From Luteimonas sp. (GTDB taxonomy: Bacteria > Pseudomonadota > Gammaproteobacteria > Xanthomonadales > Xanthomonadaceae): DNA of 40,777 nucleotides. The position numbers and the translations under genes are program-made. The stretch is taken from contig DATJDY010000072.1 in assembly GCA_035497155.1 (NCBI GenBank), forward strand, positions 1 through 40,777, given 5' to 3'. A model generated the notes under the pieces. It searched no databases, was not told the DNA's origin, and saw nothing but the letters and a program-made list of their open reading frames with translations. Below, piece after piece: positions 16,368-23,058 of this stretch; within the stretch, counting starts at the first letter, position 1; each line of letters opens with the position of its first letter.

Positions 16368-17264
16368 ATGGCGCCCTGGCTGCACCGGCTCGACCCGATC
16401 GCCCTGCAATTCCCGGAATTCACCGTGTTCGGGGCGACCCTGCATCCGGCGGTGCACTGGTACGGGATCATGTACCTGCTCGCCTTCGCCACCGCCTGGT
16501 GGCTCGGGCGCCTGCGCATCCGCGCCGGCCGCCTGCCGGGCGTCGACGAGGCCGCGTTCGGCGACCTGATGTTCTACGGCATGCTCGGGGTCATCCTCGG
16601 CGGGCGCCTGGGCTACATCCTGTTCTACGACCTGCCGGTCTACCTGCACGATCCGCTGCAGGCGCTGAAGATCTGGGAAGGCGGCATGAGCTTCCACGGC
16701 GGCCTGGTCGGCGTGTGCGTCGCGACGTGGATGTGGGCGCGCCGGCAGAAGCTGCATTTCTTCGACGTGGGCGACTTCATCGCACCGCTGGTGCCGCCCG
16801 GCCTGTTCTTCGGCCGCATGGGCAATTTCATCAATGGCGAACTGTGGGGCAAGTACACCGGCGGCGACTGGGGCGTGATCTTCCCCGGCGCCGAACCGCA
16901 GCTGGCGAACCTGCCCGCGGCGCAGCTGCAGGCGTTGCACGCCAGCGGCGCACTGGACCGTTTCGCGCGCCATCCCTCGCCGCTGTACGAAGCGGCGCTG
17001 GAAGGCCTGGTGATGTTCGCGGTGCTGTGGTGGTACTCGCGCAAGCCGCGGCCGCGCTACGCGGTGGCCGGCCTGTTCGCGCTGATGTACGGGGTTTTCC
17101 GTTTCGCCGTGGAATTCGTGCGCGTGCCCGACATGCAGCTCGACTACCTGGCGCTGGGCTGGGTGACGATGGGCCAGCTGCTGAGCCTGCCGCTCATCGC
17201 GCTCGGCCTGTTCTGGCTGTGGCTGTCGCGGCGTTCGCCGACGCTGGCCCCCGCGGCCCCATGA
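16368..17264 (+). CDS. lgt: Prolipoprotein diacylglyceryl transferase
   Basis: [48 protein letters not shown]. Confidence 0.96.
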
Positions 17265-18055
17265 AGCAATACCTCGAACTCCTGCAGCATGTCCTCGAGC
17301 ACGGCACGGAGAAGTCCGACCGCACCGGTACCGGCACGCGCAGCGTGTTCGGCTGGCAGATGCGCTTCGACCTGGGCGAAGGCTTCCCGTTGGTCACGAC
17401 CAAGAAGCTGCACCTGCGCTCGATCGTGCACGAGCTGCTGTGGTTCCTGAAGGGCGAGACCAACATCGCCTACCTGCGCGACAACAAGGTGTCGATCTGG
17501 GACGAGTGGGCCGACGACGCCGGCGAACTCGGCCCGGTCTACGGCAAGCAGTGGCGGCGCTGGGTCGGCACCGACGGCAGCGAGATCGACCAGGTGCGAT
17601 GGGTCGTCGACGAGATCCGGCGCAACCCGGATTCGCGGCGGCTGATCGTGAGCGCCTGGAACGTCGCCGACCTGCCGAAGATGGCGCTGATGCCGTGCCA
17701 CGCGCTGTTCCAGTTCTACGTCGCCGACGGCAAGCTGAGCTGCCAGCTGTACCAGCGCAGCGGCGACATCTTCCTCGGCGTGCCGTTCAACATCGCCAGC
17801 TACGCGCTGCTCACGCACATGGTGGCGCAGGTGTGCGGGCTCGGCGTCGGCGATTTCGTGCACACGCTCGGCGACGCGCACCTGTATTCGAACCACTTCG
17901 AGCAGGCGCGCGAGCAGCTGTCGCGCACGCCGCGGCCGCTGCCTTCGCTGCGCCTGAACCCCGCGGTGGCCTCGCTCGAGGATTTCACGTACGACGACAT
18001 CGCGATCGAGGGCTACGACCCGCTGCCCGCGATCAAGGCGCCGGTGGCGGTGTGA
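17261..18055 (+). CDS. thyA: Thymidylate synthase
   Basis: [37 protein letters not shown]. Confidence 0.97.
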
Positions 18056-18549
18056 TCGCGCTGTCGCTGGTCGCCGCGCTGGATCGCGGCTATGCCATCG
18101 GCAAGGACAATGCGCTGCCGTGGCACCTTCCCGACGACCTCAAGCGATTCAAGGCGCTCACCCTCGGCAAGCCGGTATTGATGGGCCGCCGCACCGCCGA
18201 ATCGCTGGGCCGCGCACTGCCCGGACGCCGCAATCTCGTGCTGACGCGCAGCGGCCGCGCACCGTTCGAGGGAATGGAAGCGTTTGCGACGCTGGCGCAG
18301 GCGCTCGATGCCGTGCGCGACGCGCCGGAGGCCTGCGTGATCGGCGGCGGCGCCGTGTTCGCCGAAACCCTGCCGCTGGCCGCGCGGATGCACCTGACCT
18401 GGGTCGATACGGAGGTGCAGGGCGCCGATGCCTGGTTCCCGCGATTCGATGCGTCGCAGTGGCGCGCCGACGCCCGCGAAGCACATGCGCCCGATGCCAG
18501 GCACGGGTTCGGGTTCGAGTTCGTCGACTACCACCGCCGCGCAGGCTGA
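18052..18549 (+). CDS. folA: Dihydrofolate reductase
   Basis: [48 protein letters not shown] start overlaps the thyA stop. Confidence 0.95.
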
Positions 18550-18574
18550 ATGCGCGCAGGTTTTTCCCTATAAT
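18546..18574 (+). promoter_or_regulatory. Putative sigma70 promoter for the peptide/acyltransferase operon
   Basis: Perfect TATAAT at 18569-18574 (rare at this GC content); weak -35 CTGAAT at 18546-18551 with a 17-bp spacer. Confidence 0.55.
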
Positions 18575-18682
18575 CACGACATGCACCAGCCGAAGTTGGC
18601 CGGCTGGTCGCCAGGGGATCCGGGAATTTTCCGGATGGCCGCACCCAGGAGGGTGGGTCCTTACAACAGGAGTAACAACACG

Positions 18683-18850
18683 ATGCAAGCATTGACCCAT
18701 ATGCTCGAGGCCGGGCTGCTGGACCACAACGTCCACGCCGGCGTGCTGGACTCGTTCCACCACGCGCTGGGCAACCTCAGCCTCGCCGAGATCGGCAGCG
18801 ACTGCTGCAGCAGCAACAACTACCCGACGCCGCCGCAGCCGCCGCAGTGA
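18683..18850 (+). CDS. 55-aa small peptide, candidate RiPP precursor (MQALTHMLEAGLLDHNVHAGVLDSFHHALGNLSLAEIGSDCCSSNNYPTPPQPPQ)
   Basis: Strong RBS AGGAG at 18668-18672 in an A-rich context; third codon positions mostly G/C; stop overlaps the next GTG (GTGA). The ORF track shows it only as the tail of 18428..18850. Confidence 0.75.
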   Translation: MQALTHMLEAGLLDHNVHAGVLDSFHHALGNLSLAEIGSDCCSSNNYPTPPQPPQ

Positions 18851-19566
18851 CGGTCGTGCCGGAGGGAAGCCTGGCTTCCCTCCGGCGCTTTCCCATTGCC
18901 ATGGATTGGCAACCGATGCCGGAAACGCTCGAATCGTTGCTGCGGATGGCGCTGGCAGGGCCCGAAGCGCCAACACATCCGACCGCATTCGTCCTGCCCA
19001 CCACCGAACGCGTGCTGGACAGGGTCGTCGCCGCTGCGTCGGCGGGCGACCTCTGGGTGGCGGGCGCGGAAGTCGCGGGTGCCGCGGCGCCGGCGGCGAT
19101 CCTGGCCCGGCTGCGGGAAGGCGCCCGGCCTCGCGTGATCGTGCTGTTCGAAGACCAGCTTGCCGGACCGGCGCATGCAACGCTGCTGGTGCGGTGCGCG
19201 GAGCGCGATCTCCACGTCTCGCCGGCCGGTTTCATCCTCGCCGACGGATACGGTTATCGGCTTGCGGTCTGGGGCAGCGAACGCAATCGCCTCCTCGAGG
19301 GCGCCGAGTCCATCGAAGCCGTCGCCGGCGCGCTGGTGGCCCACCTGGACAGTTGCCGCCGACTGGGCGAGGACTGGTCCTGGCGGCATGCGCAATCGCA
19401 ACGCGAACCCGCATTCCGCGCGAACGCAGCAATGCGGAAGCTCCGCTACCTGCGGTCCTGCGTCGCGGACGTCTTCGCGGCGCAACCGGACAGCGCCGAG
19501 TGCGGCGACTTCATGGCGAGGATCGCAGCGCTCGAAGCGCGCATCCCGCGGGCGTGCGCATCGTGA
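18847..19566 (+). CDS. Hypothetical 239-aa protein, degenerate LpxL/LPLAT-like fold
   Basis: GTGA overlaps at both ends. ARLREG..VIVLFEDQ and C-terminal GEDWSWRH echo the LpxL-family blocks LKxGxxVxxxPDQ and PEQWxWxH; no recognisable catalytic His block. Confidence 0.6.
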   Translation: MTVVPEGSLASLRRFPIAMDWQPMPETLESLLRMALAGPEAPTHPTAFVLPTTERVLDRVVAAASAGDLWVAGAEVAGAAAPAAILARLREGARPRVIVLFEDQLAGPAHATLLVRCAERDLHVSPAGFILADGYGYRLAVWGSERNRLLEGAESIEAVAGALVAHLDSCRRLGEDWSWRHAQSQREPAFRANAAMRKLRYLRSCVADVFAAQPDSAECGDFMARIAALEARIPRACAS

Positions 19567-20561
19567 GCCGGCCGCACCTGCTGGCCGCGCTTGCCGCGCC
19601 GTTGAAGCTGCTGTCGGCGCGCTCCCGGCGCGTCGAGGACTGGCTCCACCTGCCGCTCACGGACGAGGACGCGCGCCTGCTGCGGGAGGCCTGCGCCGCC
19701 AGCGGCGCGCGCTTCGGACACTACTACCATTGGTACCTGCAGAAATCGCTGGTGGCCGGCGCGGTGCGCGGACTCGACGCAGGGAAGGCGGCCCGCCTCC
19801 TTGCGGCCTCCGACCGGACGGACTACGCGGCCGCAGCCGCCATCGCGGCCTCCGACACCGGCGTGCTGGTGGCGATCCCGCACCACGGGCATTACATCCT
19901 GGCGATGACCGCGCTCGCCCACGTCGTGGCCAGGCACCGCAAGGTGCTGGTGTTCTACGGCCAGCCCGCGACGCACAAGGGCAACGAAGCCTTCGACAAC
20001 CTCCACCGCATGCTCTGCTGCGACAGCGCCGCCGGGATCGAGGTCATCCACGACACGCGCCAGGGCCTGGCCCGTGCGATCCGGGCGCTCAAGGCGGGCG
20101 AGGTGGTCTTCATCATGCCGGACGCGTTCCGCGACGAGGACGCGACGATGATGGTGCCGTTCTGCGGGAAGCTGACCAACGTGATGCTCGGCACCGCGGT
20201 CCTGGCACGCAAGACCGGCGCGTGGATCCTGCCGGCGGTCGCCACGCCCGGCGGGCACCTCGGATTCAGGACCTGCTTCGGTGCGCGCATCGATCATCCC
20301 TGGCCCCATGCCGGCGTCGCGTCGGCAGAGGCGACGAAAGTCATGGATTACGCAGTGACGCGGGCGATCTTCGTCGCTTTCGAAAAGTGCATGTCGGGCC
20401 AGCTGCTCTACTGGCAACACGTGCGCCAGCACCTCGCGGTCGGCGCGACGGCGCGCCTGGCCGGCGCCGGCGAGCTGGAAACGCTGGTCGGCGCGATCGA
20501 AAGGGATCCTTCCCTGGGCGCCCCCGGCCATGTCGTCGACCTGCGGGTGGCGGCTCGATGA
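19563..20561 (+). CDS. LpxL/HtrB-like lysophospholipid acyltransferase superfamily protein (332 aa), divergent
   Basis: GVLVAIPHHGHY (block I), IRALKAGEVVFIMPD (block III), VPFCG...GTAVLARKTGAWILP (block IV). GTG start overlaps the upstream stop. Confidence 0.8.
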   Translation: MSRPHLLAALAAPLKLLSARSRRVEDWLHLPLTDEDARLLREACAASGARFGHYYHWYLQKSLVAGAVRGLDAGKAARLLAASDRTDYAAAAAIAASDTGVLVAIPHHGHYILAMTALAHVVARHRKVLVFYGQPATHKGNEAFDNLHRMLCCDSAAGIEVIHDTRQGLARAIRALKAGEVVFIMPDAFRDEDATMMVPFCGKLTNVMLGTAVLARKTGAWILPAVATPGGHLGFRTCFGARIDHPWPHAGVASAEATKVMDYAVTRAIFVAFEKCMSGQLLYWQHVRQHLAVGATARLAGAGELETLVGAIERDPSLGAPGHVVDLRVAAR

Positions 20562-20562
20562 C

Positions 20563-21129
20563 TCAGCCGTCGCAACGATAGCGTTCCATCGATTTGCGGA
20601 TCGCGGCCTCGCTGTTCGGCGACCGCCGGAGCGCGCTGCGCAGTTCGCCGCAGGCGCGCGCCTGCGCCATCCGTTGCAGCGTGCCCGCGAGCGAGCGGTC
20701 CGCGATCGCGAAGTGGATGCGTTCCGGACGATCCAGCGCGTCGCGATCCGCCCGGCGCAGCGGATCGTCGGGGATGCGGATGGCCGTCGCCGGCAGGTCC
20801 AGTTGCAATGGGTGCCCGGTGTCCACGGCGTCTTCCGCGGCCCGGCGCGATGGCAGAGTGGGCGCAGGCGCCGGCGCGCCGTCAGCCACCCTGGCGGGCG
20901 CCGGACGGCGCCGGCGGTGGCGCGCATCGGCGCTTGCCGGCGGCGGCGCGGCTTCCTTCGCCTTCTCGATGAAGTCGACCACGACGACCTGCTCCGCCGC
21001 GTCGGGTCCGCCGCGTTGCGCCGGATTCGACAGCAGGGCGAGCGCGACGCAGCCGTGGAACAGCACGACCGCGGCCACGCCGGCCAGGCGGGCGGGCGCG
21101 CCTTCCCGTGCATCGCGGCGCGCGACCAT
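20563..21129 (-). CDS. Hypothetical membrane-anchored protein with a TonB-like N-terminus
   Basis: One N-terminal TM containing His (VAAVVLFHGCVALALL), then VVVVDFIE, a Pro/Ala/Arg linker and a small C-terminal domain with two Cys. ATG overlaps the upstream stop (TGATG). Confidence 0.65.
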   Translation of the reverse strand: MVARRDAREGAPARLAGVAAVVLFHGCVALALLSNPAQRGGPDAAEQVVVVDFIEKAKEAAPPPASADARHRRRRPAPARVADGAPAPAPTLPSRRAAEDAVDTGHPLQLDLPATAIRIPDDPLRRADRDALDRPERIHFAIADRSLAGTLQRMAQARACGELRSALRRSPNSEAAIRKSMERYRCDG

Positions 21130-22151
21130 CAGGGGGCCTCGATGCTGTATCCCTTCGCGCGCAGCGCCGCAAGGTAGCTGTCCGGGCCGGCCAGGTTTTC
21201 CATCGGGACGAAGGCGACGGTGGTTTCATTGTCGCGCAGCGCCGCTTCCGCCTCCTTGAGCCAGAGGCCCGCAATGCTCGCGTTGATGTTGGGGAGCCCG
21301 TACTTCTTCGCGAAGTCGGCGTCGGTGAGCGCGTCCGCGCACAGCCTGGTGCGCGTGGCCAGCCGTTCGAAATCGATCCGGTCGGTGGCGCCCGTGGCCC
21401 ATGCATTGGCGTTGGTGATCATGCGCGGGATGTCGCGTTCGATGGCGTCCAGCGTCGCGGCGAGGCATTGCGCGTCGTTCAGCCGGATGCGGCGCACGTC
21501 GGCCAGCGCCGCCTTCGCGGCGTCGCTGGAGACCTTCACCTCGAACTGCGGGAAGTTGCTTCGCACGCCGTTCGACTTGATGGTCTCCTCGAGCGCCGGG
21601 TAGACGACCGGATCGCGCGACAGGCGCGCCTTGCGGATCGCGGCCTCGAGCAGCGCATCGGCGGCGACGACGGGACGCTTGCGCTCGATCGACCGGTCGC
21701 CGGGCAGGTAACGCGACTTCGCCGCCACCCAGCGCGCGTAGAGCGCAGGGTCCAGCACGTCGCGCAGCGTGGCGCCGTCGGGATTGTCCTTGGCCCGGTA
21801 CATGCGGTAGCCGAGCAGCGCCATCTGGAACAGGTTGGCATCGACATCGACGCTGTAGCCCGGCGCCCAGAGTACTTCCTGCGAATCGGCGACGAGATCC
21901 CTGACGCTCGCCGAGTCCCATTCCATGTCCTTGGGCAGGGGCGACAGCGTGGCCATGATCCAGAGGCTGTGGTCTTCGTCCCTGTACACGCGCCACAGGC
22001 CGGGGCCCGACACCTTGCCCGAAACGACCACCGTGTCGAGCGTGCGGAGGGGAGCGTTGCCGGAAACGTTTGCAGGCTGCGCCTGCGCCAGGCAATCAGG
22101 GGAAAGACAGGCGGCGACCAGCAGCGCCGCCGCAAGGCGAATGCTTTTCAA
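21129..22151 (-). CDS. Secreted TraB/GumN-family protein
   Basis: Signal peptide ending AQA, PGLWRV...LWIMATLSPLPKDM, ANAWATG, C-terminal YLAALRAKGYSIEAP. TTG start. Confidence 0.8.
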   Translation of the reverse strand: MKSIRLAAALLVAACLSPDCLAQAQPANVSGNAPLRTLDTVVVSGKVSGPGLWRVYRDEDHSLWIMATLSPLPKDMEWDSASVRDLVADSQEVLWAPGYSVDVDANLFQMALLGYRMYRAKDNPDGATLRDVLDPALYARWVAAKSRYLPGDRSIERKRPVVAADALLEAAIRKARLSRDPVVYPALEETIKSNGVRSNFPQFEVKVSSDAAKAALADVRRIRLNDAQCLAATLDAIERDIPRMITNANAWATGATDRIDFERLATRTRLCADALTDADFAKKYGLPNINASIAGLWLKEAEAALRDNETTVAFVPMENLAGPDSYLAALRAKGYSIEAP

Positions 22152-22212
22152 GTGGAATGACCGTTGCGTCCATGCGACGGCCGGATTGTAGCAGCGCGTG
22201 CCGCGTGCGCGG

Positions 22213-23058
22213 CTAGCGGCGGCCGGGCGGGTTCGCGGGCACGTCGCGCCCGGCGACCTGCACGATGCGCAATTCGTCGGTATCGAGCTGCAGCGCGGTG
22301 AGCTTGCCGCCCCAGACCGCGCCGGTGTCGATCGCGTGCACGCCGTGGCCGATGAACAATCCCAGCGCCGACCAGTGGCCGCACACGATCTTCAGGTCGC
22401 GCGTCGCGCGCCCCGGCACCGCGTACCACGGGTACAGGCCCGGTTGCTGCGTGCCCGGCGTGCCTTTCTCGTCGAAGGCGATGCGGCCGCGCGGCGTGCA
22501 GTAGCGCAGGCGCGTGAACACGTTGATGATCGCGCGGTCGCGTTCCATGCCGGTGAGGCCGGGCGACCACGCCGGTTTGTCGCCGTACATGTTCTTCAGC
22601 AGCTTGCGGTAGCCATCGCCGCGCAGCTTCTGCTCGATTTCGCCCGCATGCTTCAGCGCCAGCGTGGTGGTCCACTTCGGCGCGAGGCCGGCATGCACCA
22701 TCATCCAGCCCAGGTCGCGGTCGGCGTGGACCAGGGGCTGCGCGCGCAACCAGTCGACCAGCTCGCGCGCGTCGGGCGCGAACAGCACGCCCTGCAGGTC
22801 CGGGTTGACCTTGCGCTGGTCGTCGGGGCTGCGTTCGGCGATGGCCAGCAGCGACAGGTCATGGTTGCCGAGCACGCTCACGCACTGGCCGCGCAGCGAA
22901 TGCACCAGGCGCAGCGTTTCCAGCGACTCGCCGCCACGGTTCACCAGGTCGCCGCAGAACCAGAGCCGGTCGGACGCCGGGTCGAAGCGGATCTTTTCCA
23001 GCAGGCGCTGCGTGGGGCCGTAACAGCCCTGCAGGTCGCCGATCGCCCAGGTCGCCAT
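22213..23058 (-). CDS. apaH: Symmetrical bis(5'-nucleosyl)-tetraphosphatase
   Basis: IGDLQGC, GDLVNRG, LGNHD, VHAG, GHWSALG, DTGAVWGG. Confidence 0.96.
   Translation of the reverse strand: MATWAIGDLQGCYGPTQRLLEKIRFDPASDRLWFCGDLVNRGGESLETLRLVHSLRGQCVSVLGNHDLSLLAIAERSPDDQRKVNPDLQGVLFAPDARELVDWLRAQPLVHADRDLGWMMVHAGLAPKWTTTLALKHAGEIEQKLRGDGYRKLLKNMYGDKPAWSPGLTGMERDRAIINVFTRLRYCTPRGRIAFDEKGTPGTQQPGLYPWYAVPGRATRDLKIVCGHWSALGLFIGHGVHAIDTGAVWGGKLTALQLDTDELRIVQVAGRDVPANPPGRR

Follow-up and report, generated by a model that had tools for sequence, protein, structure and literature searches.

What does an acyltransferase of the lipid A type do in an operon that opens with a gene for a short, cysteine-containing peptide? 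The question is raised by a locus of Luteimonas sp. (GenBank assembly GCA_035497155.1, contig DATJDY010000072.1; 2.27-Mb genome), analyzed here in a window of 40,777 nt, the whole stretch of DNA under study. A preliminary description had placed three open reading frames (ORFs) at 18683–18850, 18847–19566, and 19563–20561, positions that we confirm, and had read them as a system resembling those for peptides made on ribosomes and modified after translation (RiPPs). We present here evidence that the peptide encoded by the first ORF is itself under selection and co-occurs with the enzymes, and that ORF3 keeps a His/Asp pair that ORF2 lacks, as seen from fold and conservation. In the best reading, the cassette likely belongs to an undescribed RiPP class in which an enzyme of the lysophospholipid acyltransferase (LPLAT) fold is predicted to acylate the peptide core.

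The peptide and its linkage to the acyltransferase

The precursor (18683..18850, plus strand; ORF call and alignment) is 55 amino acids (aa) long and consists of a leader of about residues 1 to 38, the core S39-D40-C41-C42-S-S-N-N-Y (18797–18823), and a Pro-rich tail. It has a net charge of −5 and, as its translation confirms, no Lys. In an alignment of 23 distinct precursors (A3; near-duplicates removed, mean identity 35%), S39, D40, C41, and C42 are invariant (23/23), E9, S44, and N45 are nearly so, and the leader is variable. The SDCC codons are mixed: Ser switches between AGY and TCN, and both Asp and both Cys codons occur. Selection therefore acts at the peptide level and, judged by these codons, the ORF is a conserved, precursor-like peptide. 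A conserved small ORF with a constant leader and a variable C terminus had been expected; the conserved ORF was found, but in this subfamily the core is constant and the leader variable.

A precursor profile search gave 130 hits. SDCC is present in 120/120 of those listed, partly by construction because the profile selects for the motif, and none of the 120 has Lys in the core. Two outer Cys residues were gained as a pair (50 and 50 of the 120 listed). Some of the hits are Stenotrophomonas hypothetical proteins, one cluster of which spans 248 contigs. None of the precursors tried had a Pfam or NCBIfam match, and the peptide of the window has neither a signal peptide nor a lipobox before Cys (highest 19-residue hydropathy, 0.67; Asp precedes the Cys pair). 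Precursor C termini vary, and no daptide precursor model matched them.

A scan of genome contigs with a single sequence found nothing; alignment-based pattern scans, built on 56 ORF3 relatives, succeeded and gave 43 loci, many of them near-duplicates. A Cys-rich small ORF lies upstream in 34 of the 43 (33 with SDCC and one with a similar leader and the core SCQVSKCTW); the other nine comprise six loci with <700 bases upstream, two with a 5′-truncated enzyme gene, and one ordinary LpxL. For an unbiased test, a 78-sequence enzyme profile was run against 300 family genomes, 299 of them scored besides our own; the 299-genome tallies, for this profile and for the TraB subfamily discussed below, include the unpublished genomes G084, G171, G197, and G248, which enter no other count, and leave out G073. 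Strong relatives (E ≤ 7e-59) were found in 15 of the 299 genomes, the next matches being housekeeping enzymes at 1e-36. A Cys-rich precursor lies upstream of all 15, while at 12 control housekeeping acyltransferase loci the precursor and ORF2 were each found in none, counts that overstate the number of events, as related loci are not independent. The precursor-ORF2-ORF3 architecture accounts for 11 of the 15, with the further cores TCEICRCTW, TCDICRCDW, and ICVCHF; seven of these 11 genomes are also among the first 15 pattern-scan loci. Cassette relatives occupy other chromosomal sites. Cultured, non-pathogenic carriers include Lysobacter sp. 2RAF19 and Montanilutibacter psychrotolerans ZS60.

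Could the small ORF simply be an unrelated or untranslated neighbor of ORF3, itself an accessory acyltransferase for lipid A or phospholipids? Pfam and NCBIfam name only lipid acyltransferases for ORF3, and of four sequencing runs, all in the form of contigs, the one recorded as RNA gave short pieces over ORF2 and the TraB gene and none over the peptide gene. All NCBIfam scores lie far below their cut-offs, however, the genome holds three other LPLAT genes, and variation in the core is synonymous only. Because of the linkage and codon results, a chance neighborhood is very unlikely.

The other four strong loci have a second architecture, composed of a precursor, an HExxH membrane protease, an ORF2-like gene, and an ORF3-like gene. 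Its precursors carry an ELExR[FL]EM-type leader. Samples of the order (250) and phylum (400) added four loci of this architecture, all with an alpha/beta-hydrolase gene and three with precursors (one with two copies; the fourth locus ends at a contig edge). There was no match at 1e-40 in 350 genomes from the family of the Ideonella genome and one genome matched among the 400 of the phylum sample, counts that are floors, few candidates having been scored per genome; a plasmid search gave no match. All eight second-architecture loci (L072–L075 and L087–L090; one is the query itself) carry a site-2 protease bearing a RiPP recognition element (RRE), which matches the daptide model NF041824 at E values of 1e-14 to 1e-26, under its cut-off. 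The preliminary reading of a RiPP-like precursor-enzyme system is thus upheld by the upstream small ORF in 15/15 strong relatives and 34/43 pattern-scan loci and by this sister architecture; the reverse outcome that it had allowed for, acyltransferase relatives usually lacking the small ORF, did not materialize.

A wide ORF3 profile search gave 335 hits at E ≤ 0.001. Among the 150 listed are at least 13 long proteins, and at least nine of the listed proteins fuse an HExxH membrane protease N-terminal to the acyltransferase. The fused protease is related to daptide and epipeptide leader peptidases, with scores under the cut-offs, and the first 90 residues of one fusion match PqqD by structure (TM score, 0.60–0.67). 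Proteins P0130, P0131, P0133, P0151, P0154, P0157, P0160, P0171, and P0207 combine an RRE-like domain, a site-2 protease, and the acyltransferase; named hosts of such three-part fusions are Duganella violaceipulchra and Massilia sp. H6. In a quick tree of 48 rows, made without bootstrap and with long branches, the window architecture forms a group of 26 rows (support, 97), the second architecture and the fusions form one of 14 (86), and the housekeeping controls stand apart (99).

Core types differ by enzyme clade (SDCC, CxxCxCxW, CC[EQ][DN]YTC, and CTC) and largely follow the branches of the same tree. Their sole common residue is Cys; most SDCC cores hold only two, adjacent to each other, and neither the Ser before the first Cys nor the Asp before Cys is kept in the other types. 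Across 36 compiled precursors, Cys makes up 97 of the 879 C-terminal residues and 2 of the 1,041 others, with at least two Cys in the C-terminal 45% of every one (36/36).

These patterns bear on whether the true substrate might be lipid A or some other lipid of the envelope, acylated by an ORF2-ORF3 enzyme to which the peptide would serve as cofactor, either as a Cys acyl shuttle or as a regulatory subunit. Constancy of the Cys motif beside a variable N terminus could suit a carrier, the peptide shares its acidity with acyl carrier proteins, and lipids are the usual substrates of the fold. The sister architecture has RRE-bearing leader proteases and daptide-like leader motifs, however; tandem precursor copies, clade-wise core variation, and a hairpin after the peptide gene fit a processed product; and no precursor matched a carrier-protein family in Pfam or NCBIfam. 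We consider a cofactor role improbable and hold with high confidence that the peptide is a substrate of the enzyme.

Some related loci appear to be decaying or misassigned. L040 and L041 have a 5′-truncated enzyme gene and no precursor and keep TraB, and the enzyme gene at L076:4436-5347 has stops in its 5′ part. Locus L007, titled Nocardiopsis yanglingensis, is nearly identical to Stenotrophomonas loci L005/L027 and likely comes from a mislabeled or contaminated assembly.

The LPLAT-fold protein ORF3, its probable partner ORF2, and predicted leader recognition

ORF3 (19563..20561, plus strand) encodes a 332-aa protein of the LpxL/LpxM/PatA fold. The LpxL/HtrB blocks reported for it earlier are borne out by a match to PF03279 (E 9.6e-7, above the curated cut-off) and by its model (predicted local distance difference test score [pLDDT], 90), which gave Z scores of 18.1 to LpxM and 18.0 to PatA and a Foldseek E value of 6e-10, with 16–18% identity to LpxL/LpxM/PatA/VexE-type enzymes. 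Against the NCBIfam lipid A acyltransferase models, the best score was 33.6 bits, with cut-offs of 177–540. His107 (19881–19883) and Asp187 (20121–20123) are the only invariant columns among 78 diverse relatives; His107 aligns with the catalytic His of LpxM at the PH block, and the PD block is kept. The canonical HX4D/E motif is not present: the sequence is PHH[AG]HYI, with Ile or Val at the acid position in 56/56. VexE, an active LPLAT, also lacks this acid and uses an Asp equivalent to PatA Glu200 (PMC9597891 and PMC8519569; papers given by PMC number are cited from excerpts), so the missing acid does not imply an inactive ORF3, whose Asp187 is probably the equivalent of that VexE Asp and of PatA Glu200. 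A FYxxPxxNxxN motif is specific to the clade and was not seen in control acyltransferases.

ORF2 (18847..19566, plus strand; 239 aa from GTG) is modeled as a degenerate LPLAT-fold protein with a C-terminal helical hairpin (pLDDT, 89, with residues 1 to 20 only about 50). It had no Pfam or NCBIfam match, no usable Atlas hit, and only three close homologues, and a profile-profile comparison with ORF3 was not significant (E 0.27). The acyltransferase remnants described for it were recovered by structure: the two best matches of its model among 48,161 chains are PatA (Z 8.3) and LpxM (Z 7.5; 158 aligned, root mean square deviation 4.0), and PatA is in the top eight Foldseek rows (best E, 0.023). 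It has LPTT in place of the PH block and keeps the FxDQ block; the family has P-[TS]-T at the catalytic block, and no His is conserved among 24 sequences. Of the two acyltransferase homologues proposed, ORF2 probably shares the fold and has no catalytic His, and a role in binding the leader seems likelier for it than one as a second enzyme. Four proteins resemble ORF2-ORF3 fusions, one by a match to the ORF2 profile (E 1.7e-4) and three by motif.

The start of ORF2 probably differs from that described. Each pair of adjacent ORFs had been joined by a GTGA stop/start overlap; that between ORF2 and ORF3 is supported, and the first exists but is probably not the true start of ORF2. Database relatives begin at the residue coded at 18901 or 18916, and these shorter versions, the hairpin at 18856–18886, and the low confidence of residues 1 to 20 make a start at one of those two positions likelier.

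The peptide was modeled with both proteins, as had been proposed, with alignments as input. The peptide scored 0.64 (0.62–0.65 in three runs); the best of the three controls, among them one with ORF3 replaced, scored 0.00. Of 157 solved complexes, 116 attained the mark for this score, as did 2 of 215 mismatched pairs, a calibration that is only roughly valid here, as our own alignments and three chains were used. The runs share at least 62% of contacts, with a peptide pLDDT of 52 or more. Leader residues 2–29 make confident contacts with ORF2 residues 81–87, 109–113, 126–134, 156, and 194–201 and with ORF3 residues 307–323. No RRE is present in the models of ORF2 or ORF3 of the window.

The candidate acyl acceptor, the proposed pathway, and companion genes

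For the acylation chemistry and the role of the product, both raised in the preliminary description, we infer the following pathway. Leader residues 2–29 would dock on the ORF2 helices at 81–87 and 126–134 and on the ORF3 tail (307–323), with ORF2 predicted to stand in for the RRE of other RiPPs. His107, aided by Asp187, would activate a nucleophile of the core for attack on a thioester of host acyl-ACP or acyl-CoA; the cassette has no acyl-supply genes. Leader removal would fall to a host protease in the window architecture and to the RRE-site-2 protease in the second. The product may reach the cell envelope, as suggested by a DsbA-like gene that accompanies cores with the extra Cys pair. In the weakest steps of the proposal, a secreted, His-less TraB/GumN protein and a TonB-like protein, both described below, might bind, present, or take up the lipopeptide, and the lipopeptide might act as a surface-anchored signal or antagonistic agent.

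Several results weigh against this pathway. The complex model places the core confidently nowhere and gives no information on the acceptor. Across 20 loci, similarity between leaders follows that of ORF3 (partial r, 0.29; 1 of 2,000 permutations) but, once ORF3 is held fixed, not that of ORF2 (0.06; 440 of 2,000), and conservation at the modeled ORF2 interface does not clearly exceed that of the rest (P = 0.10); because covariation and interface conservation fail to favor ORF2, its role as main leader binder is weakened. Its fold match is borderline, by Z score (8.3) and best Foldseek E value (0.023) alike. Stenotrophomonas locus L006 (4554–6005) keeps the peptide and ORF3 and has lost most of ORF2, which may reflect decay or a dispensable ORF2. 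The window architecture has no peptide protease, exporter, or signal peptide; the absence of a protease and exporter from the operon had been recorded correctly. The TraB subfamily occurs in 223 of 299 family genomes, six of six close relatives examined lack the cassette, and TraB is missing from the complete cassettes L008, L009, L012, and L015. Finally, the Cys pair is no more invariant than Ser39, and the acceptors of the O-acyltransferases PatA, LpxM, and VexE are lipids or sugars (PMC9597891 and PMC8519569, in part).

The last two points also favor a version of the pathway in which the acyl group is placed on Ser39, on a nearby Ser/Thr hydroxyl, or on a freed amine, with the Cys residues serving for disulfides or metal. 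N-terminal acylation after leader removal is described for lipolanthines, goadvionins, and lipoavitides in the excerpted PMC13647313, and the fusion of acyltransferase and leader protease fits an order of cutting and then acylating. Yet other core types do not keep a Ser ahead of the first Cys, what follows the leader motif in the second architecture varies, the window architecture has no protease, and in two-Cys cores the Cys residues are adjacent and no DsbA-like gene is present. This alternative is unlikely, although it deserves to be taken seriously.

The DsbA-like CPxC gene was seen at L001, L010, L011, L022, and L031. Of seven distinct loci with the outer Cys pair, five have it, and these fall on three branches; it is absent from all 13 distinct two- or three-Cys SDCC loci scanned, four of which are short contigs. 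Its company with outer-Cys-pair cores suggests that the product reaches the periplasm, and the distribution suggests some use of the invariant CC other than in a disulfide made by DsbA.

Another possibility is that the peptide is the substrate of a different acyl transfer, one that might link a Cys to Asp40 or the backbone as an internal thioester or thiolactone, form a cross-link, or attach the peptide itself to a lipid. In the loci read we saw no acyl-supply genes, the whole clade has a different residue at the HX4D/E acid, the FYxxPxxNxxN motif sets the clade apart from the controls, and the invariant Asp40 adjoins the Cys pair. Other core types have no Asp before Cys, however, the fold and the His/Asp pair match thioester-using acyltransferases, and the alpha/beta-hydrolase gene of four second-architecture loci fits an ester or thioester product. 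We consider such chemistry doubtful. That hydrolase is lipoprotein-like and could remove an acyl group; we take it to resemble the eukaryotic ABHD17 depalmitoylases. Other second-architecture loci add secreted PDZ or TPR proteins.

Acylation at some site of the peptide is therefore, in our judgment, probable. For the proposal in its specific form, acylation of the core by the ORF2-ORF3 pair from a host acyl thioester and most likely on Cys, the chances appear close to even. Cys is favored as acceptor because it alone is shared by every core type, because most SDCC cores have just two adjacent Cys, and because the DsbA-like gene keeps to cores with the outer pair. More tentative still is the full claim of a new RiPP class, found in environmental Xanthomonadales, Stenotrophomonas, and Xanthomonas strains, in which a lipid A-type enzyme would have become a peptide cysteine S-acyltransferase and its dead duplicate a leader-recognition subunit distinct from the RRE.

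The cassette lies in a five-gene insert (18550..22212) between folA (18052–18549, plus strand) and apaH (22213–23058, minus strand), the folA position being from DNA matches. In 11 of 11 same-genus loci, folA and apaH are neighbors separated by about 200 bases or less, with the cassette genes absent, so the five genes are read as one insert. The preliminary description had the position right in calling this a compact operon between folA and apaH, but the unit is larger: besides the three plus-strand ORFs, the insert includes two minus-strand genes, for a 188-aa membrane protein and a TraB/GumN protein. Two genes upstream of folA, outside the insert, is a gene at 16368–17264 that we take to be lgt (prolipoprotein diacylglyceryl transferase-like), in what is presumably the usual lgt-thyA-folA block order.

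The promoter and ribosome-binding signals described for the operon are present. TATAAT, a perfect −10 hexamer at 18569..18574 (plus strand), is the only copy in the window on either strand (24 genome-wide, by motif count) and is the likely promoter of the peptide gene; a consensus promoter scan gave no site at its threshold because the −35 hexamer is weak. The ribosome-binding site AGGAG was read at 18668..18672 (plus strand). Downstream of the peptide gene, a 14-pair stem-loop (18856..18886, plus strand; −34.7 kcal/mol over a 60-base stretch, z −5.5) is likely an attenuating or mRNA-stabilizing element, and z is ≤ −2 at the corresponding position in 27 of 33 precursor loci folded.

The TraB/GumN (TIKI-family) gene (21129..22151, minus strand; PF01963, E 3.5e-20) encodes a protein with a signal peptide and is found upstream, downstream, or convergent in 32 of 43 loci, which marks it as a common associate of the cassette, not a defining member. 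The motif histidines of TIKI/TraB proteins are metal ligands; two ordinary paralogues from this genome carry them in GSFH/GSLH and GTAH/GAGH, and the corresponding motifs of the cassette protein are ATLSP and VPMENL. Because both motif histidines are missing, it is probably not an active protease. As a candidate leader peptidase it was ruled out, lacking the His pair, being secreted, being absent from several cassettes, and being common elsewhere. Its signal peptide is followed by the stretch LDTVVVSG, which we take to resemble a TonB box. This His-less subfamily with a TonB-box-like N terminus (window, 20563–22151; L093 and L095–L100) often stands alone, and at L096:2-4213 an Rhs/YD-repeat-like ORF of >1,300 aa adjoins a close TraB relative.

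The 188-aa protein (20563..21129, minus strand) has an N-terminal membrane anchor, a Pro-rich linker, and a C-terminal two-Cys domain, a layout that we take to be TonB-like. It has no Pfam match, a weak match to GltJ (E 0.049), and a hydrophobic stretch from residue 15, and its C-terminal domain occurs in 18 of 43 loci.

Comparison with known systems

A literature search, outside of which lay most subscription journals and preprint supplements, found no RiPP enzyme of the LPLAT type and nothing on Tiki/TraB/GumN proteins. The LPLAT enzymes in the literature found act on lipids or sugars, so a peptide substrate, if true, would be the class-defining modification. The cassette would then offer a two-protein, leader-guided tool for lipidating peptides without Lys and an enzymatic S-acylation route for bacterial peptides. 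Its pseudo-enzyme paralogue, as receptor of the leader, would represent a way of recognizing substrates that is new and that RRE-based genome mining misses, and the DsbA-like, hydrolase, TraB-like, and TonB-like accessories would help a surface lipopeptide to be folded, removed, and perceived. Annotation hides the class, its proteins being deposited as hypothetical proteins or lauroyl acyltransferases.

Most GNAT-acylated RiPPs, the selidamides aside, carry lanthionine or avionin rings, whereas no cyclase or dehydratase was seen in the cassette loci read. Selidamides, lipolanthines, goadvionins, lipoavitides (bioRxiv 10.1101/2023.10.25.564083), and aphotorhaptins resemble the cassette in having a precursor and an acyltransferase in a compact cluster, and selidamides use host acyl donors, as proposed here (PMC13647313). 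The acylated RiPPs listed in the excerpted part of that paper, dated October 2026, are made by GNAT enzymes, as had been stated for known fatty-acylated RiPPs, and are acylated on Lys or Orn side chains or the N terminus, whereas ORF3 has the LPLAT fold and neither the cassette peptide nor the 120 listed SDCC cores have Lys.

Daptide precursors combine an ELExMEAP leader with the RRE-fused site-2 protease MpaP/DapP (PMC10036551, in part). The second architecture has a related RRE-protease, and its ELExR[FL]EM-type leaders resemble that of daptides. The enzymes of the daptide C-terminal Thr chemistry (decarboxylase, aminotransferase, and methyltransferase) were not seen in cassette loci, however, and the window cassette itself has no RRE-site-2 protease; neither PF03279 nor a lauroyl acyltransferase was found in five of the six supplementary files of that paper. 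In DAG-RiPPs, MNIO-modified peptides are lipidated via the lipoprotein pathway (PMC13056109, in part). Like the proposed cassette product, they are membrane bound and carry the lipid on a Cys of a ribosomal peptide; unlike it, they rely on a signal peptide and host Lgt/Lsp/Lnt, whereas the cassette precursor has no signal stretch and the cassette has its own acyltransferase and no MNIO. With the TIKI/TraB/PrgY/GumN metalloproteases, the convergent gene shares PF01963 and a signal peptide but has neither motif histidine.

ORF3 resembles LpxL/LpxM, PatA, and VexE in its fold (Z 18), PH-block His, and PD block, and VexE also in its replaced HX4D/E acid (PMC9597891, in part). It differs from them in its separate clade and in belonging to a patchy (15/299), not a housekeeping, family that is always linked to a Cys-rich peptide, is paired with or fused to a His-less paralogue, and has sister members fused to an RRE-site-2 protease. 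Set beside these systems, the cassette reads as a RiPP-type system in which the enzyme family is new and a His-less paralogue replaces the RRE.

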